From: Alphaproteobacteria bacterium | GTDB taxonomy: Bacteria; Pseudomonadota; Alphaproteobacteria; UBA7887 | Assembly (NCBI GenBank): GCA_965216755.1 | Contig: CBDCGL010000011.1 | Location: 2,720,001 to 2,784,000, forward strand | Length of the DNA stretch: 64,000 bases | Direction: 5' to 3' | Part shown: positions 8,588-59,924 of the stretch, in pieces | Position numbering within the stretch: the first letter of the stretch is position 1 | Layout of the letters: the number at the start of each line of letters is the position of its first letter | Translations under genes and position numbers: made by a program | The notes under the pieces: generated by a model | The model's input: only the letters and a program-made list of their open reading frames with translations | Database searches by the model: none | Told to the model about the DNA's origin: nothing

Positions 8588-10609
8588 TCATCTCGATCGC
8601 GGCCGGGCCTCGACCGCTCTCAGAATATCCGCCGATGCGATCCGGTTGACCTCAGCGAGATCGGCGTCGGCCTTTGCCGCGTCACCGAGCGCGGCGTGCG
8701 CACGACCTCGCAAAGCGAGTGCTTCGGCGCGGTAATAGGTGCCAAACAAACCCGTTTCGATCGGTCCATCCAGCAGTTGCAGCACGTGGTTGTGGTCGAG
8801 CAGCTCGGACGCGGCGCGCGCCATGCGAATGACCAACGCGGCGTCGCTTTCCGGCGCCAGCGTCACGGCAACTTTGCGATAGGGCGTTTGATGGCCTGGA
8901 TTGGCCACCAAAAAGGCCACCCGGTCGCGAGGTCGCAGCGGCCCGAGAATGGCCTCGAGCGTGTCCAGCGAATAGATGGGCCGACCGTCGGCATCCAGGA
9001 TCGTGTCACCAGGTCTGAGCCCGGCCGCCTCGGCAGGGCCCAAAGGCGCGACGGAATGGATCTGCAGCCGATTGCCATATTCCGGGCTGCCGACGCGGTC
9101 GAAATAGACGGCACGCAGATGCGCACCCATCCAGGGTATGCGCGGCGTGGCGGGAATTGTCGGTGCGGTGGCAGCGACAGGCGGCGGGTCGTCGAGCGCC
9201 GCAAGTCGGGCCGGATCGGCCTGTTCAACCAAGGACTGATGAATGAACCCGACACCCCCGCCATGCGCGATCCGGTACCATGCGGCGTTTTTCATCCGAC
9301 CGGTTACCGAAACCCTGGCGCCCTTGCCCACAGATCCGATCCGCGCCGATGACGTGGTCGGCGCCTCGCGGATATTGGCGGCGGTCAACACCACAAAGCG
9401 CCCCGCCATCTCCTCGACCTCGCCGAGCGTGCGCTGCTGGGTTGCAGACGCGGCGGACGCGACGGTGAGCGTTTCGTCGGGCGCCGTTTTCACCCGCGCG
9501 ATCTCGACGAACGCGCCATCGGGAAAGGCCTTCAAATAAGCGGCAAATAACGCGGGATCGTCGCTGTCCTTGATGCTGTCCCAAAACAGGGCATCAGGGT
9601 CCAAATCGGCACGCCGCGAGCCCCCCGCCCCCTCGGCCCGCCGGCGCGCGACCGCGGCGAATGTGCCGTCTGGAAACTGGCGCAAATACTCCTCGTACAG
9701 CGCAGGGTCGTCCGAGTCCTTGATCGTTTCCCAGAACAGGACATCCACAGACGGCCCGGCACCGTCGGAGACAACTTCGACCGTGATATGCGCATCGCCG
9801 AGAAAATAGAAATCGCCGGTCATCGACGAGGATTCCCACGGCACCTGAACGCCGTCGGTGAGTTCTTGAACTTTGACGCGCACCCGCTTGAACACATCAC
9901 CGATTTCCAGGCCCGGAACCGACACCGTTTCAGCAAGCGTCCCCGTGTAAAAGCTGTTCGGCCCATCGCCGTCCAGGGCCACGTGGCCGGGCGCGGTCGC
10001 ATAAGCAATCAGGGTCCCGGACGGCGCGTCGATCGACGCCAGACCGCGCGACAATCCGCGGAAACTCCTGGCATAGGGGTTGTTGCGGCAGGCGTCGAGG
10101 ATAACGATGTTCAGCGGGTTGCCGGCACTGTCCATGCGCGCCAAAAGATAGTCCACATCAACCGCTTCGACCCGCACTTCCTCTTCCGCCTCGATCTGGG
10201 CACCGATTGGAATCATGTAGTTGCGGCCGTCGACCTGAACGCCGTGACCGGCGTAGTAGAACAACCCGACGCCGCCATCCTCTCGCAATCGCTTGCCGAA
10301 CTCGACCACCCCGCGTCGCATTTCGGTTTGGCTCGCATCTTCCAGGGCGATGACATCAAAGCCGACAGCCTCCAAGGCGGCGGCCATGGCACGCGAATCG
10401 TTGACGGGATTAAGCAGCGGCGCGAACGCGTAGCTGGCGTTGCCCATCACCAGCGCCAAACGCGACTCGGCGCGGGCCGGACCATGCACGAACGCGATAA
10501 CGCATAAAGCGGCACAAAGCGACCAGGCCTGCGCAAAAAAGACACGTCGATGCACGTGGCGCGTGGCGGCTCTGGCAAGCAGCCGAAATGTGGCGGATCG
10601 CTGGTTCAC
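8588..10609 (-). CDS. Exported caspase-like (peptidase C14) protein with helical repeats, SH3b, PDZ and TPR-like domains
   Basis: RLALVMGNASY, FYYAGHG (His) and ILDACRNNP (Cys). Two WxxIKDSDDP..Y...FPDG repeats, ANIREAP..W SH3b, GPAEAAGLRPGDTI PDZ. Confidence 0.88.
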   Translation of the reverse strand: MNQRSATFRLLARAATRHVHRRVFFAQAWSLCAALCVIAFVHGPARAESRLALVMGNASYAFAPLLNPVNDSRAMAAALEAVGFDVIALEDASQTEMRRGVVEFGKRLREDGGVGLFYYAGHGVQVDGRNYMIPIGAQIEAEEEVRVEAVDVDYLLARMDSAGNPLNIVILDACRNNPYARSFRGLSRGLASIDAPSGTLIAYATAPGHVALDGDGPNSFYTGTLAETVSVPGLEIGDVFKRVRVKVQELTDGVQVPWESSSMTGDFYFLGDAHITVEVVSDGAGPSVDVLFWETIKDSDDPALYEEYLRQFPDGTFAAVARRRAEGAGGSRRADLDPDALFWDSIKDSDDPALFAAYLKAFPDGAFVEIARVKTAPDETLTVASAASATQQRTLGEVEEMAGRFVVLTAANIREAPTTSSARIGSVGKGARVSVTGRMKNAAWYRIAHGGGVGFIHQSLVEQADPARLAALDDPPPVAATAPTIPATPRIPWMGAHLRAVYFDRVGSPEYGNRLQIHSVAPLGPAEAAGLRPGDTILDADGRPIYSLDTLEAILGPLRPRDRVAFLVANPGHQTPYRKVAVTLAPESDAALVIRMARAASELLDHNHVLQLLDGPIETGLFGTYYRAEALALRGRAHAALGDAAKADADLAEVNRIASADILRAVEARPRSR

Positions 10610-10719
10610 AACGCCTTTATGCTAGGCGTCAACCCCCTGTAGGACAAGGCCTTTGGTACCACTTGCGGCGAATGCCTGGGGACACGCGCGACCTTGAGGC
10701 CCGGCGTGTCCCTGCCCGA

Positions 10720-13125
10720 TCACATCGAATAGCGACCATAGAGCGACAGCTGGGCGGCTTCGAATTCGACGCCTTCGCCCACGTCTTCGTCGTCCATGAA
10801 GTCGAATTCATCTGGCAGCGCCTTGGACCGCAGCACTTTGCCTTCCGGGCCGCGCGGCAGCGCGTTGGTGGGTCCATATTCGGCTTCCAGCTCGGCCACC
10901 TCGGCATCGGTTAGCTTGGTCACAGAAACCGGCGCGCCCTTGAGGTGCGGGACCCCCTGTTCGGCGTCGACCGACGACAAATCTTCATCTTCGGCCAGCT
11001 GCGCCTCGCAGAACGACCACAAGCCCGAAAGGTGTTCGCCACCTTGGCGCGATTCCGGCTTCCACCAGCCGTGCGGAATACGCACCAAGCCCCTTGGCAT
11101 GCTGGAGCGCGCAAAGACACGCCCGAGCATGGCACCGGTCGGCGTCGCGACCCGCGCCCAGGCGCCGTCGGCAATGGCAAGCGTCTGCGTGTCTTCGGGG
11201 TTCATAAAGAAAAGCGGATCCTCGGCGCGCTTGCGCAGCTCCGGCACCTGGCGGTGGCCCGAGCGGAAAAACTCGTCCTCGGGCAAACCGACAAATGAGG
11301 TGAACGGATAGGCCGTGCTGGTGCCAGGTCCCTCGCGATAATAGGGCAACGGATCGAAGCCGAGCGCCGCCAAGACTTCCGAATAGAACTCGACCTTGCC
11401 CGACGGCGTGGCGAAACCGGTCTTGAGATATTTGCGCGCACCATCCTCGGCGGCTTGGCCCTTGTGCAGGATCGGCGGAATGCCGGCGGCGACCACCTCC
11501 GCCCAGGTCTTGCCGCCAGGCTCCAAGCGATAGTCGAACATCTGTTCCGGTGTCGCCCACGGGAATTGCGCGGCCAAACCCATGCGTTTTGCAAGCGCGT
11601 GCCAGAAATACACCACGTTGCGGCACTCGCCCGGCGGTTCCATCGCTTGTTCACTGATGCCGGCCTGCATGCTGGGGCGTTCGGTCCACGCGTCGCCCGG
11701 CAACACATAATCGGCAATCTGTGCGGTCGGCGACATGGCGTGTTCGAAGGCGACGATCAGGTCTTGCTTCATCAAGCCTTCGTAGGCGCGCTTGGTATTG
11801 GCATAGGCGGCCAGCACATTGTTGGCCATCGCGAACAAAGCACGGACCGGATAGGGGTGGCTTTCCGCCATTGCCTTGAACACCGCCATCGGGTGCGCCA
11901 TGTAGCAGCCGCCGACCAGATTTGCCCACCGGATTCCCCATACTTTTTCTGACGCGTCACAAAAAGCGCCGGTGCCACGATAGGTAAAGGCCGGAAACTG
12001 ATCCGAACCCAGTTGCTTCGCCTTTTGCTCCGGCGCCAGCACTTCGTGCATTTCAATCTCGGAATCCGACCGCACCGCCGGATTGAAGCCGATCAGCTGA
12101 TCGCCGCCGGGCACATCGAGATGGCCGCACAACGCGCGCAGCATGCATTGCAACCGAATGGCGGACGTGCTGGAGACCTGTTGATCAGTCACCGGCGTCC
12201 AGGGAATGCAGGCCGGGCCGCTGGTTGCGTACATGCGCGCGCCCGCGGCGATCAACTCAGCATCAACGCCGGTAATCTCGGCCACCCGATCAAGCGGATA
12301 TTCGCGCGCCCGTTCGGCGAGGGCGTCGAAGCCAACCGTCCAATCCCGCACGAACTCTTTATCGTACAGCTCTTCGGAAATGATCACGTTCAGCCAACCA
12401 AGCAATAGTGCAGCATCGGTGCCCGAACGCAGCGGCAACCACAAATCGGCACGCTCGGCGTTTTCGCTGCGCCGTGGGTCGATAACGATCAGCTTGGCGC
12501 CGCCGGCTTGCGCCATGCGGATCGCCTTGTATTCCATGGTCCAGCTATGGCGGCGCGGATCGTGGCCGATCAACACGATACATTTTGATTTGAGAATGTC
12601 CGCGCGCGGAAACCAGCCATACACATAGCGATTGATCGCCGCGGTGTTGCCCGCGCAATAGGCCACGCCGCCGATCCAATTGGGCGAACCGACATGGTTC
12701 ATAAAGCGGCGGCAGAGGCCATTGTCACCCAGCCCGGTGGCGCCGCTTTGGGCGACGGCAAACGCCTCTGGACCATATTGGTCGATGACCTTTTGCAGAC
12801 GCGTGGCGATATCGTCCATTGCCTCGTCCCAGGTCACGCGTTGCCATTCGCCACCCCCGCGCGCGCCGACCCGCTTGAGCGGATAAAGCACCCGGTCCGG
12901 GTGGGCGAAATGCTTGGGCGCGTAAGCGCCTTTCATACACAGCACGCCCCGAAACAGCGGGTGGTCGCGCGTGGTGATTTTGACCACGCGGCCGTCTTCG
13001 ATCTTGGCCGACACCGGGCAAAACCCATCGCAGCTGGTGCAGACAACCGATTTCAGCACGTCCCGCTGGTCATTGTCGGAACCGATGATTTCATCAATGT
13101 CTGTCGGACTTTGATCATCAAGCAT
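10720..13125 (-). CDS. Bis-MGD Mo/W oxidoreductase, acetylene hydratase-like
   Basis: N-terminal CTSCDGFC...CMKG 4Fe-4S motif, YCAGNT metal-ligand region, PLRSGTDAAL, ADYVLPGD.WTERP, ATPSGKVE, IPHGWW. Start uncertain (ATG 13125 chosen). Confidence 0.88.
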   Translation of the reverse strand: MLDDQSPTDIDEIIGSDNDQRDVLKSVVCTSCDGFCPVSAKIEDGRVVKITTRDHPLFRGVLCMKGAYAPKHFAHPDRVLYPLKRVGARGGGEWQRVTWDEAMDDIATRLQKVIDQYGPEAFAVAQSGATGLGDNGLCRRFMNHVGSPNWIGGVAYCAGNTAAINRYVYGWFPRADILKSKCIVLIGHDPRRHSWTMEYKAIRMAQAGGAKLIVIDPRRSENAERADLWLPLRSGTDAALLLGWLNVIISEELYDKEFVRDWTVGFDALAERAREYPLDRVAEITGVDAELIAAGARMYATSGPACIPWTPVTDQQVSSTSAIRLQCMLRALCGHLDVPGGDQLIGFNPAVRSDSEIEMHEVLAPEQKAKQLGSDQFPAFTYRGTGAFCDASEKVWGIRWANLVGGCYMAHPMAVFKAMAESHPYPVRALFAMANNVLAAYANTKRAYEGLMKQDLIVAFEHAMSPTAQIADYVLPGDAWTERPSMQAGISEQAMEPPGECRNVVYFWHALAKRMGLAAQFPWATPEQMFDYRLEPGGKTWAEVVAAGIPPILHKGQAAEDGARKYLKTGFATPSGKVEFYSEVLAALGFDPLPYYREGPGTSTAYPFTSFVGLPEDEFFRSGHRQVPELRKRAEDPLFFMNPEDTQTLAIADGAWARVATPTGAMLGRVFARSSMPRGLVRIPHGWWKPESRQGGEHLSGLWSFCEAQLAEDEDLSSVDAEQGVPHLKGAPVSVTKLTDAEVAELEAEYGPTNALPRGPEGKVLRSKALPDEFDFMDDEDVGEGVEFEAAQLSLYGRYSM

Positions 13126-13416
13126 CGCCACGCACTCCAGTTGCGAACCCAGCTCACACGTTCTGCGTGTGGTTGTCGACAGCATGATAACGGCGTGTGC
13201 GGGACCGGACAATCTGGGCACCCGAGCATCTGCCAAGCGTCAGACGCATGTCGGTGGAACGGTTTTAGTGCTCTCCGACCGCGTTTCGGGCATCGGCAGG
13301 CAAGCCACAGGCGAGAAGCTGTGTTTCCCGATATGTTCGTGTGATCAGGACCGACATGATCTAGTAAGGACGCACCCACAGTGCAAACATGGGGTGTATC
13401 CAACGGGAGGCGCGTT

Positions 13417-14694
13417 ATGAACCGGCTCGAGGACATCGCAAATCACGCTATGGCCGGAACGGCGGCAGGTTCGCCGGCCTTTGTGCCACCCCTCCAACTC
13501 ACGCAAGGGCAGCCGCCACCCGTCGCCGCCAATGGCGGCTTGTCGTATATGGCGTTCGATCGGAAAGGCGATGGCGGAACCGCCGCGGCGACCGCGGCGG
13601 CGCTTGCGCAGATTGCCGAGGGCAAGGGGCAAGCGGTGATCGACAGGCTGGACAGTGCGCCCCCCGGGCCCATCGAGACCCAATGGGGCATCGGGTTTCG
13701 CACCTATGAAGAGTGCCTTGACCATATTCGGGCGAACAACATCGAAGTGCCCGAAGGCGGCCTTGCGCTGCCGCTTCGCTACACGATCCATGAAGAGCCG
13801 ACCTACACCGTTGTCCCCTCCAACGCGCTCTGGCGCGACCCGGGGCGCGCGGCCGACGCAAAAGCGTTGCGCCAGGAAGAGCGGGACATCGCGCGGCGCT
13901 GCCTCTATTTCCCACACGTGATGCGCGATGCGCGGCGCTTGGAGGCATACTACCCGGGTCTTTCGCCCGAGAGCCCGGACTGCATGGATAAGCTTGGGCT
14001 GGCGTTGGCGCACTGCGAATCCAAGTGTGAGAATTTCTACGACTCGGCCGAAGTGGAGCGCGTGTTCTATCCCGAGATGGAACAACTCCTGCTAGCGTTT
14101 TTCCCCGACGCGACCGACGCGTTCGTCTACAACCACGATGTGTTCGACCAGGACTACCAGGGCGACCGCACCGAGGACCAGGACGCCAAGAACCCGGGGG
14201 TCAACGCCCGTTACGCCAACATCGTGCACAATGATCTGAACGACAATAGCGGTCGCGTGAGCTGCCGCGAACTGCTGACCAAGAACCTGCGCAACTTCGG
14301 GCGTGCGCAGCACTATACGGAAGCGGAAGCCGACGCGAAGATGTCGCGCCGGTTCATGTCCATCAACCTTGCCAAGCCGATGGAAACCGTGCGCCAGAAT
14401 CCGTTCGTGCTGTGCGCCTGGCCTTCTTTCGCCGCCCAGCCGTACATCAACAACTATCGGATCTACGACGACCGCGTCGGCGAGACCACTCGCTTCACCT
14501 ACCGCCCGAACCACGAGTGGTACTGGTTTCCTCAGCAGGCGCCCACCGAGGTTTCCATACTGAAATGCTACGATTCCATCACTGATAACTCCGTGTCGCG
14601 CTATTCGTTTCACACGGCCTGCATCGACCCGACCGCGCCGGACGACGCACCCTGCCGCAGGAACGTCGTTGTCCGGTCGTTCGTCTTTTTTTAG
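13417..14694 (+). CDS. CmcJ/NvfI-family oxidoreductase with N-terminal extension
   Basis: YNHDVF, VHNDLN, NPFVLCAW, WYWFPQQ, LKCYDS, FHTAC..DP, RRNVVVRSFVF. GGAGG RBS before ATG 13417. Confidence 0.78.
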   Translation: MNRLEDIANHAMAGTAAGSPAFVPPLQLTQGQPPPVAANGGLSYMAFDRKGDGGTAAATAAALAQIAEGKGQAVIDRLDSAPPGPIETQWGIGFRTYEECLDHIRANNIEVPEGGLALPLRYTIHEEPTYTVVPSNALWRDPGRAADAKALRQEERDIARRCLYFPHVMRDARRLEAYYPGLSPESPDCMDKLGLALAHCESKCENFYDSAEVERVFYPEMEQLLLAFFPDATDAFVYNHDVFDQDYQGDRTEDQDAKNPGVNARYANIVHNDLNDNSGRVSCRELLTKNLRNFGRAQHYTEAEADAKMSRRFMSINLAKPMETVRQNPFVLCAWPSFAAQPYINNYRIYDDRVGETTRFTYRPNHEWYWFPQQAPTEVSILKCYDSITDNSVSRYSFHTACIDPTAPDDAPCRRNVVVRSFVFF

Positions 14695-34507: not shown

Positions 34508-35383
34508 GTGATGATTCGACGGGCGATTGCCCAGCTGGTGGCGCTCACCTTCTGCGGTGCCGCCGCCCATGCCGGAGACACCAACTCGCACAGCGCGGCG
34601 GCGGCTGGGCCGGTGACGCGTGACCTTGGCGGCACCGTGGTACGCGCGCGCGATCCAGTGCCGCTTGACTCGACGGTATGGCAAGAGCTGCGCGCCACGA
34701 TGTTGGGTGACGCGCCGGCGGTCTATTCTGACTCCAAGGTCCGCCTGGTAATGCCGCGCACGGTCGAGGACGCGTTCAATGTGCCGGTGGTGGTCAAACT
34801 GTCTGACCGGATCGGCCCTGTCGCCCAGATTGTCGTGATGGCCGAGAACAACCCGATCCAGACGGCGGCGCAAATTTTTCCGCGCCGGTCGATCGGCGCC
34901 ATCGGCATGAACATTCGCCTTGAGCAAACGACACCGGTACGCGCCGCCGCGCTTGACGCCAATGGCGTTTGGCACGTCGCGACCACCGAAGTGGAGGTGA
35001 TGAATCCAGGCGGCTGCTCGACGCCGATCGGCGCCAGCGGGGCAGGCGCGGCGCCGGTCGGCGCGATTGCCGTCAAACGCTTCGCGCGGCCAGACCGCGC
35101 GACCCGGTTGAAAGTCGGTATCACCCATCCGATGGATACCGGTTTCGCGCCCGACACCAACGGCGACATTGTGCCGGCCTACTATGTCGACACGCTGACT
35201 GTCACCGATACCGCCGGACCGATCGCCGATCTGGTCACTTGGGCGGCGCTGTCCCCCAATCCAAGCTTTTTTTTCGACCTGCCCGAAGCGCGGCAAAGCG
35301 TTCGCGTGACCGCGTCAGACACCAGGGGGCGCGCCTTCGAAGCCCTTGAAGCTAGCCACGAGACATCAGACAAGCCGTCTTGA
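34508..35383 (+). CDS. Fused SoxYZ-like carrier (quinoprotein dehydrogenase-associated type)
   Basis: Signal peptide, ENNP, IRLEQTTPVRAAA, GGC swinging-arm motif (NPGGCS), SoxZ-like THPMDTG and LSPNP. Confidence 0.82.
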   Translation: MMIRRAIAQLVALTFCGAAAHAGDTNSHSAAAAGPVTRDLGGTVVRARDPVPLDSTVWQELRATMLGDAPAVYSDSKVRLVMPRTVEDAFNVPVVVKLSDRIGPVAQIVVMAENNPIQTAAQIFPRRSIGAIGMNIRLEQTTPVRAAALDANGVWHVATTEVEVMNPGGCSTPIGASGAGAAPVGAIAVKRFARPDRATRLKVGITHPMDTGFAPDTNGDIVPAYYVDTLTVTDTAGPIADLVTWAALSPNPSFFFDLPEARQSVRVTASDTRGRAFEALEASHETSDKPS

Positions 35384-35669
35384 TGGGCCACACCGCGCGG
35401 ACGGTGTTTGATGTGTTGGCGCCTTCGCGCCTGGATCATCCTGCAAGGTCAATACCGACGGACCGCTTCAGGTGACCATTCAATGCTCGTTGAAATCTAA
35501 CTCTTCACGTTCGCTTCGACGGGTCGGCAGATGGCGGCCACCAGCGGCGTCCGGCAGGGCCGTTGTCGTTGACGGCATCTGGTTCCAAGACTGGCTGGCC
35601 TTGGAGGTGCCTGCGTGGAGCCCTGGCACCAGCCTATCAAAGCCACAGCATTGTAACCCATTGATATAT

Positions 35670-35678
35670 TGGCGCACC
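35670..35678. repeat. Left att core (duplicated tRNA 3' end)
   Basis: TGGCGCACC, followed by TTCGAACC at 35692 as in the tRNA copy. Confidence 0.85.
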
Positions 35679-35776
35679 TCGAAGGAGAAACTTCGAACCG
35701 CCTCTTTGAAACACTACAAGACTGGGACACCTACCTCAAGGAGAACACTGTCGAGTTCAGGGAGCCTGCACCATGA
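35678..35776 (+). other. Detached 3' segment of the serine recombinase gene (joined in the excised circle)
   Basis: In frame with the shared GCG CAC codons, reads LEGETSNRLFETLQDWDTYLKENTVEFREPAP*. The TGA (35774-35776) overlaps the mobC ATG (35773). Confidence 0.75.
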
Positions 35777-36222
35777 CGCAGCACTCCCAGGATTGGAATC
35801 GCGGCAGCACCTCAAAGGCTTTCACGGACGCGGCGAGGCAAGCCCAATCACAGCCGTATGAAAAACCGGTTCCATTCTCTCTGCGTCTGACGCGCGAAGA
35901 ACGGGCGCAACTGCATGCGCAGGCTGGAGATCAGCCACTCGGTGCCTACATTCGCCACCAATTGCTAGGCGACAAAGCCCAAAAGCGCCGCCGCACACGC
36001 CGGCCCGGAGTCGACCACCAGAAGCTTGCATTGGTACTTGCCGAACTCGGACGTTCGCGGCTCGCCTCCAACCTGAACCAACTTGCCAAGGCAACAAATA
36101 TGGGCACGTTGGACGTATCCGCCGATCTCGAACAGGAGCTCCGTGAGGCTTGCCAGTCCATCGCGGCGATGCGTGAGAAACTAGTCTCGGCCCTGGGCGT
36201 GAAGGTGGAGTCTGGAAAATGA
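35773..36222 (+). CDS. mobC: MobC-like relaxosome accessory protein
   Basis: RHH-like FSLRLTREERAQL..LGAYIR and LAELG...SNLNQLAK motif. ATGA overlap with the relaxase. Confidence 0.85.
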   Translation: MTQHSQDWNRGSTSKAFTDAARQAQSQPYEKPVPFSLRLTREERAQLHAQAGDQPLGAYIRHQLLGDKAQKRRRTRRPGVDHQKLALVLAELGRSRLASNLNQLAKATNMGTLDVSADLEQELREACQSIAAMREKLVSALGVKVESGK

Positions 36223-37511
36223 TACTCGTAGGAAATCAGCGGGGCGGAGCGAAAAGCTTGGCCCTCCATCTGCTGAAAGACGAGAACGATCATGTGGAGG
36301 TGTTCGAACTTCGGGGCTTCGCCTCGGATGAATTGCTCCCTGCACTGAACGAAGCCTACGCCGTGAGCCGGGGCACGCGCTGCAAGCAATTCCTGTTCTC
36401 GCTCAGCTTAAACCCACCGCGTACCGAGAATGTCGAAACGGGCGTGTTTGAGAACGCTATTGACAGAATCGAGGAAAAGCTGGGTTTACAGGGTCAGCCC
36501 CGCGCCATCGTCTTTCATGAAAAGAACGGCCGCCGTCATGCGCATGCGGTGTGGAGCCGGATCGACACAGGTGAAATGAAGGCAGTTCCCCTGCCCTACA
36601 CGAAATTCAGACTGCGGGACATATCGCGTGAGCTTTACCTGGAGCATGGCTGGACCATGCCGCACGGTCTTATGAACTCCGAAGCGCGCGATCCTAAGAA
36701 CTTCACCTTGGCGGAATGGCAACAGGCCAAGAGGATCGGCAAAGACCCACGCGAAATTAAGACCGTCTTCGAGGATTGCTGGGCGGTGAGCGATACGCAG
36801 GCTGCGTTTGCCCATGCCCTAAAGGAGCGCGGCTACGTTCTCGCACGCGGCGACAAGCGCGGTTTCGTGGCGCTCGATTTCCGTGGTGAAGTCCACTCGG
36901 TCTCCAAGCGGGTCGGGATCAAGGCGAAGGACGTGCGCGCCAAGCTGTGCGATGAGGAATCTCTGCCTTCCGTCGATAAAGCCAGAAGCCAGATTGCCGA
37001 GGGCATGGCGGCGCGGCTTCAGGAATTAGAGGGTCAACACCGCAAGACAATTGATGCTCGCACAGCCGCGCTTGAACAACGTTGCAGGACGTTGACGCGC
37101 CAACATGTGGATAAACGACGGGCCATGTCCGAATTCCATGAAGCCCGCCAGCTACGAGAAAGGTGTTTACGCCAGGACCGGTTCCGAAGCGGTTTGCGCG
37201 GCCTCTATGACAGGGTGACAGGGCAGCATAAGAGGATTCGTGAGCGCAATGAGGATGAAGCCTGGCAGGCCCTTTTGCGCGACCGGCGGGAGAAAGATGC
37301 ACTGATATTCCGGCAGCTCGAAGAACGTCGGAACATTCAAGATCGACTTGAAAAACTCAGGTCGCTGAAGTCAGAACGGACAACCGAGCTCAAACGCGAC
37401 ATCGACGCGTACCAGGAGATGAAGGAAGGCGAGCGTGAGAAACTGGAACGTCATCGCAGTGACAAACCACGCATCCAGCGGCGACGGCCCGGCAGAGACC
37501 TGGGGAGATAA
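36219..37511 (+). CDS. Relaxase/mobilization nuclease (MOBP-like)
   Basis: MILVGNQRGG, FSLSLNPP, AIVFHEKNGRRHAHAVWSRID (3-His HUH motif), coiled-coil C-terminus. Confidence 0.9.
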   Translation: MILVGNQRGGAKSLALHLLKDENDHVEVFELRGFASDELLPALNEAYAVSRGTRCKQFLFSLSLNPPRTENVETGVFENAIDRIEEKLGLQGQPRAIVFHEKNGRRHAHAVWSRIDTGEMKAVPLPYTKFRLRDISRELYLEHGWTMPHGLMNSEARDPKNFTLAEWQQAKRIGKDPREIKTVFEDCWAVSDTQAAFAHALKERGYVLARGDKRGFVALDFRGEVHSVSKRVGIKAKDVRAKLCDEESLPSVDKARSQIAEGMAARLQELEGQHRKTIDARTAALEQRCRTLTRQHVDKRRAMSEFHEARQLRERCLRQDRFRSGLRGLYDRVTGQHKRIRERNEDEAWQALLRDRREKDALIFRQLEERRNIQDRLEKLRSLKSERTTELKRDIDAYQEMKEGEREKLERHRSDKPRIQRRRPGRDLGR

Positions 37512-37690: not shown

Positions 37691-37769
37691 GGATCGAAGC
37701 CGCATGGCCGAGACCGCGTATTGCGGGCTCGGTTTACGAGAGCCCGGTCCGGCTTCAGCCGGACGTGCC
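37691..37769 (+). repeat. Structured dispersed repeat, copy A
   Basis: TCGAAGCCGCATGGCCGA...GGGCTCGGTTTACGAGAGCCCG-GTCCGGCT-TC-AGCCGGAC-GTGCC. Confidence 0.85.
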
Positions 37770-39712: not shown

Positions 39713-39792
39713 GGTCGAAGCCGAATGGCCGAAGCCTGACGCAGACGGGGTTCGGTTCACGAGGGCCTGGTCCGGCTTTAGTCGGACGTGCC
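39713..39792 (+). repeat. Structured dispersed repeat, copy B
   Basis: TCGAAGCCGAATGGCCGA...GGGTTCGGTTCACGAGGGCCTG-GTCCGGCT-TT-AGTCGGAC-GTGCC. Confidence 0.85.
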
Positions 39793-41213: not shown

Positions 41214-41269
41214 GGGGTTCGGTTCACGAGAGCCCGACCCTCCGTAGCCGTAACGAAGGAGGGCGCGCC
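41214..41269 (+). repeat. Structured dispersed repeat, copy C (partial)
   Basis: GGGGTTCGGTTCACGAGAGCCCG-A-CCCTCC...GGAGGG-CGCGCC. Confidence 0.75.
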
Positions 41270-43032: not shown

Positions 43033-45171
43033 TTAGTCCGGCGGCAAGGCTTCGCCATTTGCCGGTGGGTCTTCGCCTTCGGCCTGCTCCCATGATGATG
43101 CGATAGGAGGCCAGTCTGGAGGCACACCCTCCCGGCGCAGCCAGGTACCCCAGAATTTCGGATCATCCGAACGCGGACGTTGTGGCCTCTGCAGATCACG
43201 AATGCGAATAAGCACAGGTGTTGGCACGGCCCACCCGAGAAGAATGGCCTGTTGCGAGGGAAGAGTTGGAAGTTCGCCGAGAAGCCCGCCCAGAGCATCG
43301 GGAACCAGGCGGCGGACTAGATTCTGGTCTACATCATTGACGATACGGTGAAGCAGGAACGAATTGCACTGCGCGAGCACGGTTGGTGAAAGCTCTAATG
43401 GGCGCTGCGAGGCAAGAACCAAGCCCAACCCGAATTTGCGCCCCTCTCGTGCGATACGCTCAAATGTCTGACGGCACAACTCAGAGGCTTGCGCGCTGGC
43501 ACCGACATCGGCGTCCCGGCGCACAAAACTGTGCGCTTCTTCGAGCACAACGACCGTGGGCAAAGAAGCATCATTTTCTTTGATGTGACGCTGCAACGCC
43601 TCGAAGATCAGGCGGGATATGACAGCAATAGCAATATGAACGACATCCGAAGGAACAAGCGAGAGATCGAGGATAACAAGCGGTTCCTGATTGCCTTCTA
43701 CCGGCCCTAGAAGACTATTGAGCCATGAGCCAAGCGAATCGGCACCCTCGGTGTCGATCACGGGGCGGAGCCCTGCATCGCCAAGCATAACCTGTATTCG
43801 GTTTATGAGCGGCTCAACATTGTTCAGCGCCTGCCCACCCGTTGCCATGGCAACGTCGTGGATGCGGTCGGGAAGCGCGGCGACATCAAAGCGAACGGGC
43901 GCATCCTCACTGATTTCGCCGTGCGTTGCTGCGATGGAAAAGGCGTCGGTAATCGTGCGGAGCTGTGCTAGTACGATTTGCACATCGGCTGGCTGAAAAT
44001 CGTTGTAGCCAGAGGAGTTTTGTGATGTCCAGTGGCGGCGCGCGCGCACTTGTTCAATCGGATCACGAATGGCGATAATGGCGTCTTTCAGATCAGCCGC
44101 GTCCGCGCCGTACTCTTCCAAGGTTGCCTCGTCGGTCTCGCTCAGCCCGAGAAGTCCTTCGAGCAATGATCCAAAATCACGATTCTGGGGAAACCCGGCG
44201 ACGCTTTGGGGCAATTCGGCATAAAGTTGTTCTACTTGACGCACATAGCCGTTGTAGCGGCGAGTGGCTTGCACACTTGCCGTCATTGCTGATGAGCCGG
44301 CGTTACGCAATTGCCGCAGCGCTCTTAGGAGTAAGGGGCGTTGCACTCCGGGTTGTGCGGAAGTGAAGGCAGCCCATTCCTGTCCGTTCCAGAGCCAGCC
44401 GGGCACAGTGAGTGGACGTATATCACCCTGACCGCCAACGGAAAAGCGCCGCACAGGCAATGTCCCATCGTTAAACGCCTGCGCATATTCGCCGTTGGGA
44501 TCAAGGATTATGAAGCGGGCGTTGGCAGGCTCGCCATTTTGCCCGTCCGGCTGGGCCGCCTTAGCGCTTTCCAGAGACCAGCGCACGATGCCTGCGACCG
44601 AGCACGACTTGCCGCTTCCGGTATTGCCCAGAACGGCAAGATGCCTACCAAAGAGTTTATCGGGATGGACCCACACGCGGGCGTTGCCTGCAAAAGGCGC
44701 CGTTCCGATTTGAATGAGTCTATCATCGGTCTTGGCTTCGACAATCGAGCGCAATTGGATAGCGCTCGGAAGGAGAACAGGATCGCCAACTGAGGGTAAA
44801 ACCGGAACACCGCGTTCAAGAGAGTAAAGCGGCTGGCCGTCTTCATCCTCGCCTTCGCGGAAGAGCGTCCCGAAGGGGATGGCAATCACGGTGCGGGCCG
44901 GAAAGGGAAGATCGACAAGCGCTTCATCCTTTTTACCGTTACCAGGCCTTGCGCGGACGATGGAGATTTCCTTGATAGCCGCAACGACAGCTCCGGTCTC
45001 ATTGGGAACCAGAACGTAGGCGTTTACTCGCGGAAAACCTGTCGGCGTGCCAGTATTAAGCGCTGTAGCCTGCGGCGTTTCGTTGAAAAGTGCGATACGT
45101 AGCTCGTCCGCTGTGACTGTTTCGACCCTGCCAACAGAGAGCGTTCCGATACGCTCGACAATCGTAGTCAT
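43033..45171 (-). CDS. HerA/FtsK-family ATPase (anti-phage HerA type)
   Basis: HAS-barrel-like N-terminus, RHLAVLGNTGSGKS, ILDPNGEY, VLEEAH, RIAREGRKFG, SQRP, QCNSFLLHR. Confidence 0.93.
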   Translation of the reverse strand: MTTIVERIGTLSVGRVETVTADELRIALFNETPQATALNTGTPTGFPRVNAYVLVPNETGAVVAAIKEISIVRARPGNGKKDEALVDLPFPARTVIAIPFGTLFREGEDEDGQPLYSLERGVPVLPSVGDPVLLPSAIQLRSIVEAKTDDRLIQIGTAPFAGNARVWVHPDKLFGRHLAVLGNTGSGKSCSVAGIVRWSLESAKAAQPDGQNGEPANARFIILDPNGEYAQAFNDGTLPVRRFSVGGQGDIRPLTVPGWLWNGQEWAAFTSAQPGVQRPLLLRALRQLRNAGSSAMTASVQATRRYNGYVRQVEQLYAELPQSVAGFPQNRDFGSLLEGLLGLSETDEATLEEYGADAADLKDAIIAIRDPIEQVRARRHWTSQNSSGYNDFQPADVQIVLAQLRTITDAFSIAATHGEISEDAPVRFDVAALPDRIHDVAMATGGQALNNVEPLINRIQVMLGDAGLRPVIDTEGADSLGSWLNSLLGPVEGNQEPLVILDLSLVPSDVVHIAIAVISRLIFEALQRHIKENDASLPTVVVLEEAHSFVRRDADVGASAQASELCRQTFERIAREGRKFGLGLVLASQRPLELSPTVLAQCNSFLLHRIVNDVDQNLVRRLVPDALGGLLGELPTLPSQQAILLGWAVPTPVLIRIRDLQRPQRPRSDDPKFWGTWLRREGVPPDWPPIASSWEQAEGEDPPANGEALPPD

Positions 45172-46448
45172 GCCGCCCCGCCTTCGCAGTCAGGCTCTCC
45201 CTGGCCCGTCTTTCCCCGCCGTTCAACCAGTTCACTCATTCGAATGGTTAGCGGATCAATGGCAGGCTTGGGCAGATAGTGTGCGACAAGCTGAGCAATA
45301 TCGCCGAAGTGTTTGCCAAGAAGGAGCGTGAGTTGCTGCGGCCTTCCAGCGCGCTCCACAAATGCAGAAACTCTTTCATGCGGCTTTTCACCCCAACCGA
45401 GAATGACGAGGTGCGTAGACGGGATCGTCAGCATGTCCCCGATAACTCTGTTGATGTGGTCGTCGCCAAAACCGAAGCCATAGCTTACAAGAACGTTGTT
45501 CGGCTGGCAGATTGATGATGAAAAATCGCGGAAGAGATCGGCATAGGGATAGGCAGCCGTCTCTACGTCCTTGACCGCATTGGGATAGATCATCACCGAG
45601 TTGCGCGGGCTATCAGGCACCGCAGGATGCGTTGCGTCTGCACCAAAGGGCAGGCCCGTGCGGTAAAGGCGCGGTTGTTCGTAGCGCCAGTCGAGCGAAC
45701 CGTGAAGCTTTGTAAAATGCATCACGCCTTCAAGATGGCGGGGCTCACCGCGAATACCCGGCGGCGTGTAGTGCATATCGATGTGCAGACGGGATGATCT
45801 GAATTCCGGGTCAAGTGCACCAATAAATCGGTCGATGATGCGAAGCCCGGCATGATCGCAGCCATGTTCAATCAAGCGGTCATAGTTGGTGGTAAATATG
45901 TGTAACCTTTCTCGCGATGCTGCGCGGCTGGCAAAACTCATCAGGAAGGAAACTAGAATCTCACTTGGCGAAGGCCCGCCAGCGGCGGGCACCGTGTTCA
46001 AGCCGTCGGCGATGCCTTTCTCAGTCGCAAGCACGTCCTTGATGAATCCGCCAAGCACATTGTCGATTGCCGCTTCCCAGGCAGGAGCGTCCTCATGTTC
46101 GAGAATTTGCAGACCGGCGAGAAGCGCGAGCGCGGCAGAAATTTGGTCTTCAATATTGGCGCTGCCACGCCCCATGCCTTCGGCCATCTTCTTCGCGTGC
46201 GCGTTAACCTTCTCCACGCCTTCGCAATCAAATTCGGCCTCGGCCATGGTGACGGGCGCGGCACCGGCTTGAACAGCAATGCCGGTGGTAAAGCCATTGC
46301 CGAGAAGAAGGGACAGGTGTTCGGCTTGAAAGACAGCTGACAGCCATGGCTCGATACGTCTGCGCCATGCGCCCGTATCACTAGCCGGGTCTTCGGGAAC
46401 GTGCGTCTCACCACCGATATGAACGATATGATCATGATCCCAATTCAT
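45168..46448 (-). CDS. SIR2-like (SIR2_2) protein
   Basis: [41 protein letters not shown] overlaps with both neighbours. Confidence 0.9.
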
Positions 46449-47182
46449 GACCTTGCCGCCTCCGCTGCCACATGGCCTGCGAGCTCGCTGACAAAGGTCC
46501 GAAGGCCGGTCATTTCGCTAAGGTCTGAGTATTCGCCGGTACCGGCGCCGTTGCGCGGCGATATGATGACCGACGCCGCCGTGTAGAGTTGCTCCTGCAC
46601 CAACTTACGACACAAGATGTTGTAACGGTCGGCATAGGACGCAGTCTCAAATTCAGCAAAAACCGGAAAATGCGGTGAGATATCCTTGACCGGCGCGCGT
46701 GATTTCGGGGCATCCTCGAGCAACATGAGCCAGCCAACAAAGGGCCGCGGCTGTTCGCCGAATGCGCCTTCGCGATAGGCGGTCCACAGGTCGTGGGCAT
46801 TGCCGATGGCCTCTTCGGTCCGGTTGTTGAAATTGTTGCCGAATGACGGACCGACTTGGCTCTTGAACTCCAGCACCGCGACCAAATGGCCCCGATTCAT
46901 TACGAGCAGGTCCCACTGCTTCGTTGGCCGAAAATAACCCGGAAGCGTCACGACCCGGCGCTTTCTGTGGATGTCTGCGAGACCGAGACCGTTGGCGCGC
47001 ACGATCTCCACGACCAGCGCGACGAACCCATCCATATTCTTGCCCGCCGTGACACCAGCGCGCTCGCCCTGATCTGCGTTGCCTGACTCGATTTGTTTCT
47101 GACGGGCCTGCTCACGATTGCCCCAGAACGCCTGAACAGCCTCGCGCGCCTTTTGTTCGTAATTTGCCAGATCAATCGCCAT
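46445..47182 (-). CDS. Type II restriction endonuclease, PaeR7I/XhoI family (predicted CTCGAG)
   Basis: [52 protein letters not shown], closely resembling R.PaeR7I as I recall it. Confidence 0.9.
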
Positions 47183-47193
47183 GCCCGTCTTTC

Positions 47194-48921
47194 TTATGCG
47201 TTTCCGTTTCCTCCGAGTGCGGCCCTCTCATCCTTGGACAAGCGATAGAGCTTGAATGCCGCCTTGTTGCAGGCCTCCGTATCACCGCGTTGTGCCGCCT
47301 TGATTAGCGCGCCCTTGATATCGGCAGGCACGTCCTGCCAGCGCGGCAGGCGAATTCGCCGCAGGTATTGCGCCTGAAAGCGGAAATAGCCACCCCGCAT
47401 CTGCGTTGAGTAGATCGAAACGAACAATCGTGCAATCCCTGATTGCAGCACAGACTGCAAAGCCTTCAAGTCCCATTTATCGGACGTGATGAAATAAAGA
47501 TTGTGGTGCGGGTAAAGCTTGCCGTCCTCATAGACGATATGGGCTTCACCCTTGATGTCGGGGATGAGCAGCTTCGGCTTGGTGGCGAGTACCGGGTAAA
47601 TCCGGTCAATGGTACGATACCAGTTTGCCGGTGCTTTTTTTGCAATATGCCGTTTGGCGATCTTGTCCTTGCGCGCTTCCAGATAGGCGCGCAGCTTGGG
47701 GTAGTTGCCGAGATCAACAAGCCCGACTTCATCGGCGAACGGATTGACGATGCCAAGCCCACGCCATTTGACCTCGCCGCTCAAGATATCGCGCGTCATG
47801 ACCAGCGGCAGCTTGCGGTCCGGCTCCACGTCAAGTTCGTCGAAGGGGCCGATAAAAGCCTTGTCATTGCCGGTTGCAACACCGATCCCGACCTTGCACC
47901 CGGCTTCTTCGATAAGCGGAAACTCGCTTTCCAGCCTGCGCACAAGGGCAAGCTGATCCGGGGATTCGAGTATCCAGGGTTCCGTTCCCGCCGCGACCCC
48001 CGCTAGCTCTTTGACAACGGAATCCGGACCCGGCACGTGTTTGGAAAGCAGCTGTTTGCCTAATGATCGCAGCGCTTTGTGGCTAATCCCCGGGCGGCGC
48101 GCGATGCGGGTCTTTCCCGGCTTTTCGTTGGCGATGATGGTAATGGCCGGATAAGCGATCACATCCGCATGGAAAGCAGGCGTATTCACCATGTCCACAT
48201 AGACCTTCAAGTGAAAACGCTCGGCAACAAGCTGCCGAAGCTGCCTGCCATAACGGTTCTTCATCCACCTGTCGGCGCAGATGAAACCGAGCGCGCTTTT
48301 TGTGCGAAGCAGATTCAGTGAGCGCTCGATGAAGGGGATATAGAGGTCGGCCCTGTCGAAGATCGTTTTGTACCGTGCACGGTACTCTGCCATCAGAGCG
48401 TCCGGAATAAGTTCCTGCCGAACGTAAGGTGGGTTGCCAACTACGTAGTCGAATGCGTCGGGTATGGGTGTGAGAAGAAAATCCCCACATACCAGCCAGG
48501 TATTTGTGAGACGCTCCGCATCACGATACTTTATCCCAGCTTCTATGAGCTGCGTGACAACGCGTTTACGCGTTGCTGAAAACGTGCTCTTGTGAAGCTC
48601 AACCGCTTTGATGCTGTCTTTGAGGCTCTCGAACGCATTGCCCTTTCCGCGGTGTCGCCGCCATGCTTCGAGCAAGCGCTCGACGATGATCAGAAGAAAA
48701 TCCCCCTCGCCAAATGAGGGCTCTAGGAGGCGGCGCTCGAATAGAGGCTTGTTGGGCGTGTAGCCCAAGAGGTCGAGAATGAACTCTACAACTTCGCGGC
48801 GCGTGTAGATTGCGCCTCGTTCTTCAATACCGGCAACAGCAAGATCTTTTAATGCATCCTCAACCGGACACATACCTGGAATCGACATCTGGCGGAGCTG
48901 AGGGTGTGCTGGTTCCGGCAT
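47194..48921 (-). CDS. N6-adenine DNA methyltransferase, gamma class (M.PaeR7I/TaqI-like)
   Basis: [11 protein letters not shown] (motif I), VVGNPPYVR (motif IV), ADLY..FIE, TaqI_C-like KLLIPDIK. Confidence 0.93.
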
Positions 48922-49142
48922 CAATAAGTCTCTCCCGCTTTGGCCTGTTCCAATTCGCCGAGAGTCACCTCGATGGTCCCGCCATTCCTGTGACGCTGCA
49001 AAAACTCGCGCATGGATCGTCGAATGAGCCAGGAAGCCGTGACTTCGCTGTTCCGGGCCAGTTTGTCGAACGCGGCGTAGTCATCCGGATCGACCGTCAC
49101 CGTAATTCGCTTCATCGGCTTAAGTATTTTACGCTTCGGCAT
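48921..49142 (-). CDS. Ribbon-helix-helix (CopG-like) regulator
   Basis: [28 protein letters not shown]. Its TGA overlaps the methyltransferase ATG. Confidence 0.78.
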
Positions 49143-57859: not shown

Positions 57860-58199
57860 GTGAATCAGACAGACAAAAAGAGAGAAAGGAGAGCACACAG
57901 GCAGACAGGAAATGCCGCCCCCGCGGACTCGCTTGACCTTGATCCCCACGAATATCGGGAGCACCTGGAAGGTTTGCACCTAACTGAAGCCGAGGAAAAT
58001 GAGCTTCTGCTGGCGCTATGGTCCATTATGAAAGCCTTTGTCGACTTGGGTTTCGGGGTAGATTCTATCCACCATTTTTTCCCGGCGCTTGGGCCAAATT
58101 CTACGCAAGCTTCGCCGGAAGCGTTAGAATCAAACGATCGGAAATCTGCTCGTCAGTCAGAGGAAGGCAGTTTTGATCCGGCGAGAAAGATGGTGGGCC

Positions 58200-58213
<14 letters not shown>
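57860..58213 (+). CDS. Small hypothetical protein overlapping the recombinase start
   Basis: [27 protein letters not shown] helical core. Overlaps the recombinase 5' end. Confidence 0.65.

Positions 58214-59924
<1,711 letters not shown>

Follow-up and report, generated by a model that had tools for sequence, protein, structure and literature searches.

An integrative mobilizable element at the CCA end of a tRNA-Arg gene, with an attP half-site that resembles the tRNA 3' end and carries its T-loop box five nucleotides further out

The element and its genes

The window analysed here, a stretch of 64,000 nucleotides from an alphaproteobacterial genome, contains between about 36 and 60 kb a region whose GC content is 0.50-0.59, against 0.61-0.65 outside. 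[quoted passage not shown] The coordinates of its features are collected in Table 1. Going from left to right, Pfam searches identified a NikA/MobC-like protein, a MobA/VirD2 relaxase, a HerA-type ATPase with a SIR2-like protein, a XhoI-type endonuclease with an N6 methylase, a SprT-like protein, TraG/VirD4 and the LSR. An IME is expected to combine its own integrase with a relaxase and accessory mobilization genes, and to lack a full mating-pore gene set. Besides the integrase, the element has a relaxase, a NikA/MobC-like accessory protein and a coupling protein of the TraG/VirD4 type; among the 23 ORFs scanned, several of which belong to no Pfam family, no further type IV secretion family was found. 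No tyrosine recombinase was detected by Pfam in the same 23 ORFs, and the identity with the tRNA is only 9 bp, against the long, gene-rebuilding tRNA fragment in the attP of tyrosine-type tRNA islands; by these features the element is not such an island.

Concerning the rest of the gene content, the minus strand carries a defence cargo at 43033-48924, where the SIR2-like gene stands beside the HerA/DUF87 ATPase and the XhoI-family endonuclease beside an Eco57I/TaqI-like N6 methylase. A 45-nt repeat composed of two GC-rich hairpin-like halves occurs three times inside the island (37725-37769, 39748-39792 and 41215-41259), with 62-87% identity to the reference copy.

Table 1. Coordinates of the element, its attachment sites and the neighbouring features in the window
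Feature	Position	Strand	Remarks
SoxY/SoxZ, chromosomal side left of the element	34508-35383		higher GC
Whole integrated element	35670-59721	.	~24 kb, IME type
B arm of attL, chromosomal flank	35640-35669	+	would follow the tRNA-Arg 3' end in the empty site; outer limit nominal
Core, left copy of the 9-bp identity	35670-35678	+	TGGCGCACC; inferred to contain the crossover
P' arm of attL, element side	35679-35699	+	AGGA in tRNA register 35683-35686; 5 extra nt 35687-35691; box TTCGAACC 35692-35699
Integrase C-terminal tail, coding sequence	35678-35776	+	read only in the circular form; 32 residues including T-S-N
NikA/MobC-like protein	35773-36222	+	Pfam PF21983 (1.2e-5), PF05713 (0.0016)
MobA/VirD2-type relaxase	36219-37511	+	Pfam PF03432 (3.6e-13)
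Large serine recombinase, element-encoded part (507 aa)	58200-59720	+	Pfam PF00239, PF07508, PF13408
Fixed-synonymous blocks in the integrase 3' end	59643-59685, within a constrained stretch 59543-59685 (about -170 to -28 from 59713)	+	73 family genes
P arm of attR	59686-59712	+	encodes the disordered last residues of the element-encoded integrase
Right core copy and B' arm (tRNA 3' end)	59713-59737	+	TGGCGCACC 59713-59721; T-loop box TTCGAACC 59730-59737
tRNA-Arg (anticodon CCG), integration target	59713-59789	-	ARAGORN; sole tRNA gene of the window

The integrase

The integrase belongs to the large serine recombinases, and all three domains of this class were recognised by Pfam. The resolvase-type catalytic domain PF00239 was found at 2.4e-23, the recombinase domain PF07508 with 26.4 bits against a cut-off of 21.1, and the zinc-ribbon domain PF13408 at 8e-10. 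Residues Y12, R14 and S16 of the catalytic domain, as well as the zinc-ribbon cysteines C295, C298, C319 and C324, are invariant in 40 sequences. In the AlphaFold model (pLDDT 80.9) long helices at 351-429, inserted between the zinc-ribbon strands, correspond to the coiled coil of this class; the approximately 70 residues after it (437-494) belong to no Pfam family, and residues 495-507, the last 13 encoded by the element, have a pLDDT below 50 and are predicted to be disordered. The best Foldseek matches to the model are the SPbeta, Bxb1, PhiC31 and LI integrases over their full length, with 9dxf at 2e-17. A phmmer search of PDB with the single protein retrieved catalytic domains only and a profile was required to reach further; the family profile matched the C-terminal domains of A118 integrase (4kis) over 225-428 at 1.4e-8. 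Both the profile and the modelled fold also agree with the catalytic domains of serine recombinases.

Neither the last 140 residues of the integrase nor the small ORF upstream of it showed a Pfam family above the cut-off, in searches extended to E-values of 5. This small ORF (57860-58213) overlaps the start of the integrase gene and is conserved in one of the related loci discussed below (L057, 9639-10001); it is a candidate directionality factor or regulator. A tblastn search of the integrase against the PLSDB plasmids gave no match at 1e-40, and at 1e-5 only relatives with less than 27% identity.

Anatomy of the attachment sites

The two ends of the element share the 9-bp sequence TGGCGCACC, which is the reverse complement of the CCA end, the discriminator and five acceptor bases of the tRNA-Arg. 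A second shared sequence, TTCGAACC, is the reverse complement of tRNA positions 52-59, T-loop included. An earlier note made on this DNA had placed TTCGAACC 17 nt from the start of TGGCGCACC in the tRNA half and 22 nt from it in the element half, and both offsets, counted from the start of the 9-bp identity and not from the centre of the site, are exact; in the tRNA half 8 nt separate the end of TGGCGCACC from TTCGAACC. The segment 35670-35699 comprises the core of attL and its half on the element side (P'). Comparing P' with the tRNA end, 21 of 25 positions align with a single gap of 5 nt: 10 of the 14 proximal positions match unshifted, and 8 of the 9 box positions match at shift 5. As far as its sequence tells, P' is an imitation of the tRNA 3' end, in which the first ~17 nt (TGG ... 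AGGA) stand in register and are followed by five extra bases and then by the T-loop box.

Both motifs were counted in the window. TTCGAACC is present four times, against 2.78 expected, and is not over-represented (at least four copies in 32 of 100 shuffles); TGGCGCACC also occurs four times, against 1.41 expected (at least four in 8 of 100 shuffles). The 16 nt that follow the core on the tRNA side were also aligned to the element side, with a single gap of 0-10 nt permitted: the best alignment, 12 of 16 positions, requires a gap of exactly 5, and only 380 of 127,782 other positions of the window do as well (0.3%). Neither sequence is rare alone, but the arrangement stands out. Since the pattern recurs at the same offset in four of four relatives (see below), a chance resemblance in a GC-rich genome is a very unlikely explanation, to the point of being negligible.

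The displacement in related elements

The arms of related elements can be read when the left end falls within the 10-kb flank or when attP is intact. Using NikA/relaxase homologues and an nhmmer profile, four such loci were found (L006, L013, L041 and L057), all belonging to the subset with a NikA/relaxase left end; homologues of both genes lie downstream of attL or attP in each of them. We compared the tRNA 9-mer at +16..+24 with each element arm at shifts from -4 to +12. A shift of 5 was the single best one in all five arms, with 8 of 9 matches in the window and in L013, 7 in L006, 5 in L041 and 6 in L057, the last compared with the consensus; the boxes of these last two arms are degenerate. 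No other shift in the scanned range exceeded 5 matches, or 4 in L041 and L057. Unshifted, the proximal positions +3..+16 match the tRNA at 10 (window), 12, 6 and 9 of 14 positions, and GGA is present at +14..+16 in four of the five arms. Thus, in the right halves (P' against B'), the distal motif lies about 5 bp further out in attP and the proximal part remains in register. The earlier note had suggested aligning the att sites of homologous elements as a check on the spacing, and the spacing withstood it in all four readable relatives.

The same note had stated that the zinc-ribbon motif of large serine integrases is located 5 bp further out in attP than in attB, and this rule is indeed in print. 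In the description of the LI integrase the 9-bp zinc-ribbon motif occupies half-site positions 11-19 of attB but 16-24 of attP, while the part bound by the recombinase domain does not move (PMC3783163); the cryo-EM work on the SPbeta integrase reports the displacement as confirmed, with a size of 4 bp, DBD2 being nearer to the centre on the attB halves (PMC11722253).

Further attL sites were searched for in two ways. The longest-prefix match of each element to its own tRNA end yielded, beyond L013 and L041, only GC-rich 8-10-mers without supporting features. A search for a tRNA prefix followed by a shifted box in 605,783 nt upstream of 76 integrases, at shifts from -3 to +13, was passed by L013 alone, at shift 5. 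Most elements are evidently longer than the 10-kb flank.

tRNA targets of the integrase family

The protein search returned 3,163 matches, of which the top 120 listed are 58-100% identical. Among these 120 homologues the C-terminus is a tRNA-antisense tail in 108 by pattern and in 4 more by eye; 4 stop at or before the junction and 4 have other tails. For the loci themselves we considered the best 80 of at least 555 confirmed stretches, with one genome per species. In 68 of these 80 the integrase gene passes without a break into the TGG of a complete tRNA gene on the minus strand, which is tRNA-Arg in 57 cases (five anticodons), Glu and Leu in 3 each, Thr in 2, and Ala, Phe and Ser in 1 each, so the targets among the 80 best loci span the tRNAs of seven amino acids. 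In 6 loci the integrase abuts a 3' fragment of a tRNA, in 2 the tRNA is cut by the end of the contig and 2 end before the junction. The family is found in Pseudomonadota, Bacteroidota, Verrucomicrobiota, Nitrospirota, Acidobacteriota and Bdellovibrionota.

Some loci merit a separate description. In the six fragment loci (L010 at 11496-14679, L015, L017, L050, L071 and L076) only about 45 nt of tRNA 3' end lie next to the integrase, and in L010 a complete tRNA-Arg is present 3.1 kb beyond the fragment; such fragments are the signature of a later second island in the same tRNA gene, that is, of a tandem array. The junction of L038 (~11483-11540) is tRNA-like but odd: it reads TGGCGCGG, TCGAAC then starts at +19 instead of +18, and ARAGORN did not call a tRNA there. 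It may represent a pseudo-site or a tRNA that has decayed. L057 is the only locus among the 80 with an uninterrupted order of integrase, tail, NikA and relaxase, which is an attP-like arrangement; its integrase gene (10001-11626) is broken into three ORFs and the copy is decayed.

The non-Arg targets are scattered on a FastTree phylogeny of 73 integrases. Seven pairs of integrases with at least 90% identity (93-99.6%) are found at different tRNA sequences, for example Arg-TCT and Arg-CCG (99.6%), Thr-TGT and Thr-CGT (98.6%), and Glu-CTC and Arg-CCG (93.3%). The last pair, L072 and L073, consists of two contigs of one metagenome-assembled Lichenihabitans genome bin, with near-identical P arms. 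Within the seven pairs the targets differ at +6, +8..+14, +17 and +24..+27, and never at 0-5, 7, 15, 16 or 18-23. Over 78 junctions of the family TGG, the G at +4 and the G at +15 are invariant, the G at +14 is present in 63, the A at +16 in 76 and TCGAAC at +18..+23 in 75-77. It should be noted that tRNAs as such have an invariant T-loop and TCGAAC, so that their constancy in the tRNA halves does not show that the enzyme reads them. The occurrence of near-identical integrases at different tRNAs fits the idea of the earlier note that related elements could retarget many tRNAs.

The integrase tail and synonymous constraint

In the integrated state the integrase ORF has no stop codon inside the element: it continues through the right core and the antisense strand of the tRNA gene as far as 59924. 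In the circular form the frame would continue across the junction, so that attP lies inside the integrase gene and the tail is swapped on integration, the ~68 codons of antisense tRNA and flank (59712-59924) of the integrated form standing against a conserved 32-residue tail in the circle. The latter would end in a TGA (35774-35776) that shares bases with the start codon, ATG, of the NikA-like gene. The earlier note had also read the attP copy of TTCGAACC as coding for the S-N residues of the tail, and the frame agrees with it. On the basis of these reading frames, the tail swap could represent a built-in switch between an integration-competent and an excision-state enzyme.

The peptide [ED]G[ED]x[SL][NK]xLFxxLxxW[DEN] is conserved in five elements (window, L006, L013, L041 and L057), with an insertion in L013; the part of it that lies beyond the att region, LF..L..W[DEN], is found in the window, L006, L041 and L057 and in variant form in L013. 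Scans with nhmmer and with the peptide pattern retrieved the tail only in the same four relatives, and a search of a set of 5.8 billion proteins, limited to the tail region and to longer proteins, found no integrase with a tail of the L057 type.

Since the box is inside a conserved coding tail, protein constraint could account for some of its conservation and for the whole of the spacing modulo 3. It is therefore necessary to consider that the box might be kept only for the Ser-Asn of a functional tail, with no role in DNA recognition. Such an explanation would account for a peptide conserved well past the att region, for a spacing kept anyway because indels that are not a multiple of three would be lethal to the tail, and for the boxes of L057 and L041, where bases and residues change together (Leu-Asn and Ser-Lys, respectively). 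In P', however, the Gly codon is GGA in 4 of 4 cases (16% in the integrase genes of the family), the Ser codon TCG in 4 of 4 (21%) and the Asn codon AAC in 4 of 4, whereas several codons are used for the conserved Leu and Phe residues a few codons downstream of the att region. The fixed synonymous sites of the box and of the preceding GGA seem to speak against a purely protein explanation, but no more than suggestively, since the sample is small and the elements are related. Moreover, the tail peptide leaves the unshifted proximal similarity to the tRNA (10 and 12 of 14) unexplained. We consider coding constraint alone unlikely.

The same observations bear on the possibility that P' is a relic, that is, a decayed tRNA 3' fragment of the kind found in the attP of tyrosine-integrase islands, which received a 5-nt insertion, later became coding and is not read by the enzyme. 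The alignment with the tRNA end, interrupted by one gap only, is what a relic would show, and tRNA islands are described as commonly carrying tRNA fragments (PMC4383910). But a neutral copy would have drifted at the invariant synonymous sites, and the 5-nt displacement is kept across elements that share no more than 39-54% identity between their NikA proteins and that have tRNA-Ala among their targets. A relic is, in our opinion, quite improbable.

Synonymous constraint was also found at the 3' end of the element-encoded integrase gene, over the blocks reported in Table 1. At the fixed positions Leu is encoded by TTA in 70 of 73 genes (7% in the background), Arg by CGA in 49 of 67 (9%) and Phe by TTC in 72 of 72, and p-values below 1e-8 are reached in 6 of the 16 conserved columns of the last 60 codons against 1 of 177 elsewhere. 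The resulting motifs, among them GGnTTTCGAACnCC and CCnTTCAAGGynTTAG, are not at the mirror positions of the P' box.

Crossover and the opposite arms

Large serine recombinases typically use short att sites with little in common except a central dinucleotide. The identity between the two junction copies covers 0..+8 (9 bp) in the window, 0..+10 (11 bp) in L013 and -1..+7 (8-9 bp) in L041, and in L006 it is limited to TGG, GC at +4/+5 and +7. From the comparison of L006, L013 and L041 the crossover would be TG, GG or GC within the first 6 nt, if its position is the same in the whole family. With a crossover at TG or GG the box would span half-site positions 21-28 of attP and 16-23 of attB, and its distance from the centre would exceed that in the LI integrase by 4-5 bp. 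A crossover at GC (+4/+5) would fit LI within 1 bp, and this dinucleotide is palindromic. Natural sites usually avoid a palindromic central dinucleotide.

The sites of canonical serine integrases are pseudo-palindromes, each half-site repeating the motifs of the other. This was not found here: within 36 nt, and for any crossover in the core, the P and B arms of the window, L013, L006 and L041 contain no mirror T-loop-like box, the best match being 5 of 8. In the window the best box match is 4 of 8 in the B arm, which has no similarity to the P arm, and 5 of 8 in the P arm. Also, no consistent shift between P and B was observed in the four elements with both junctions. The earlier note, which had seen no symmetric motif in the other half-sites, was right on this point. 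Since the B arm is whatever sequence follows each tRNA, recognition must be one-sided.

The absence of a mirror motif in the P and B arms is also what would be expected if the box were read by something other than the canonical zinc ribbon, such as a family-specific C-terminal region or an accessory protein acting on an intrinsically asymmetric site. In agreement with this possibility, the residues between the coiled coil and the disordered end have no Pfam family, the integrase gene is immediately preceded by a small conserved ORF, and additional DNA or RNA elements are suggested by the strong synonymous constraint between -170 and -28. On the other hand, a half-turn displacement of 5 nt combined with an unshifted proximal part is the exact zinc-ribbon signature described for the LI integrase (PMC3783163), and no evidence ties any other domain to DNA. 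A different reader is decidedly unlikely.

A model of site recognition

The mechanism proposed in the earlier note, that the enzyme reads the invariant T-loop, is held here in a narrower form. The recurrence of the 5-nt shift in the four readable relatives argues for it; the missing mirror motif and the possible constraint on the coding tail weigh against it, and both the role of the zinc-ribbon domain as the reader of the box and the position of the crossover are points that we infer. In this narrower form the tRNA gene would be bound by one integrase subunit, whose recombinase domain would contact the CCA/acceptor part while the zinc-ribbon domain contacts the T-loop box. On P', a subunit of the same type would place its zinc-ribbon domain further out by half a helical turn; in this enzyme family such a displaced geometry would mark the site as attP and not attB, permitting the synapsis of attP with attB. 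Strand exchange would then take place within the first 6 nt, at TGG or at the following GC. As the key bases are common to all tRNAs, near-identical integrases could land in different tRNA genes. We hold it on balance probable that one subunit reads the CCA/acceptor part together with the T-loop box, and that the P' box, half a turn further out, sets the attP geometry.

Comparison with known systems

One of the closest known systems is the A118/LI integrase (Rutherford et al. 2013, PMC3783163), described with the same set of catalytic, recombinase and zinc-ribbon domains plus coiled coil, and with the same combination of a fixed proximal motif and a distal motif displaced by 5 bp. As described there, LI sites are pseudo-palindromic and each half has the motif, which here is confined to the right halves; unlike in LI, the target here is the end of a tRNA gene and attP is inside the integrase gene. 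The SPbeta, Bxb1 and PhiC31 integrases (9dxf, 9iu2 and 9tep) are the best structural matches to the model; their sequence identity is 14-16%, and their targets are protein genes or intergenic sites, in contrast to the tRNA gene found here.

Serine recombinases at tRNA genes are presented as rare in a 2011 paper, with phiRSM1 at tRNA-Ser and eight Mycobacterium AICEs at tRNA-Leu (PMC3218068). The present element is similar to phiRSM1, which integrates at the 3' end of tRNA-Ser, in having a serine recombinase at a tRNA gene, a comparison made by description only; the account of these cases in PMC3218068 does not describe T-loop reading, 5-bp mimicry or the use of several tRNAs. In the Islander paper serine integrases are stated not to be known to target tRNA genes (PMC4383910), and a 2017 review of IMEs reports serine-integrase IMEs only in Firmicutes and only within genes. 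The supplement of PMC8627217 contains no statement as to which Mesorhizobium IMEs use serine integrases.

The tRNA islands of tyrosine integrases, as presented in the Islander work (PMC4383910), share with the present family the 3' tRNA site, the flanking repeat of the tRNA end and the tandem arrays at one tRNA. They differ in the enzyme family; moreover, the shared sequence here measures only 9 bp (3-11 bp in relatives), and the cut falls at the extreme end of the tRNA. Archaeal integrases of the SSV1 type are tyrosine recombinases whose attP is inside the gene, which is cut in two on integration. The position of attP within the integrase gene is thus common to both, but here only the last ~33 codons are swapped. 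The multi-targeting LSRs (Durrant et al. 2022, PMC10083194) likewise include closely related enzymes with several target loci; that clade is described with DUF4368 and with AT-rich or TT-core motifs, whereas no DUF4368 was found here, and the main text of that paper does not mention tRNA.

Our literature search found no paper on T-loop reading, on a 5-bp displaced tRNA mimic in attP or on the present integrase family. The rule of the attP shift is known; what is new is a variant architecture of serine-integrase att sites.

Conclusions

Putting these observations together, one may tentatively picture a large and widespread clade of serine integrases that uses universal features of tRNA genes as attB, exchanging strands at the encoded CCA end and docking its zinc ribbon on the T-loop box, with one-sided att sites, a half-turn mimic in attP and the tail swap as a possible directionality switch; as a whole we regard this picture as possible, with the doubts somewhat heavier than the arguments in its favour. 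For the insertion of large DNA, serine integrases are the tools of choice, limited by the need to find or reprogram attB sites. If the clade reads invariant tRNA features, there would be a simple rule to derive the attP half-site from the target, with the same proximal part and the distal box 5 bp further out, and if the picture is true the enzymes of the clade could be retargeted to any tRNA gene by few changes. It would also provide a case of strongly asymmetric att sites and would correct the older view, as expressed in the Islander paper (PMC4383910), of tRNA targeting as a property of tyrosine integrases only. For the family itself, it would explain how one enzyme lineage moves among tRNA genes across several phyla.
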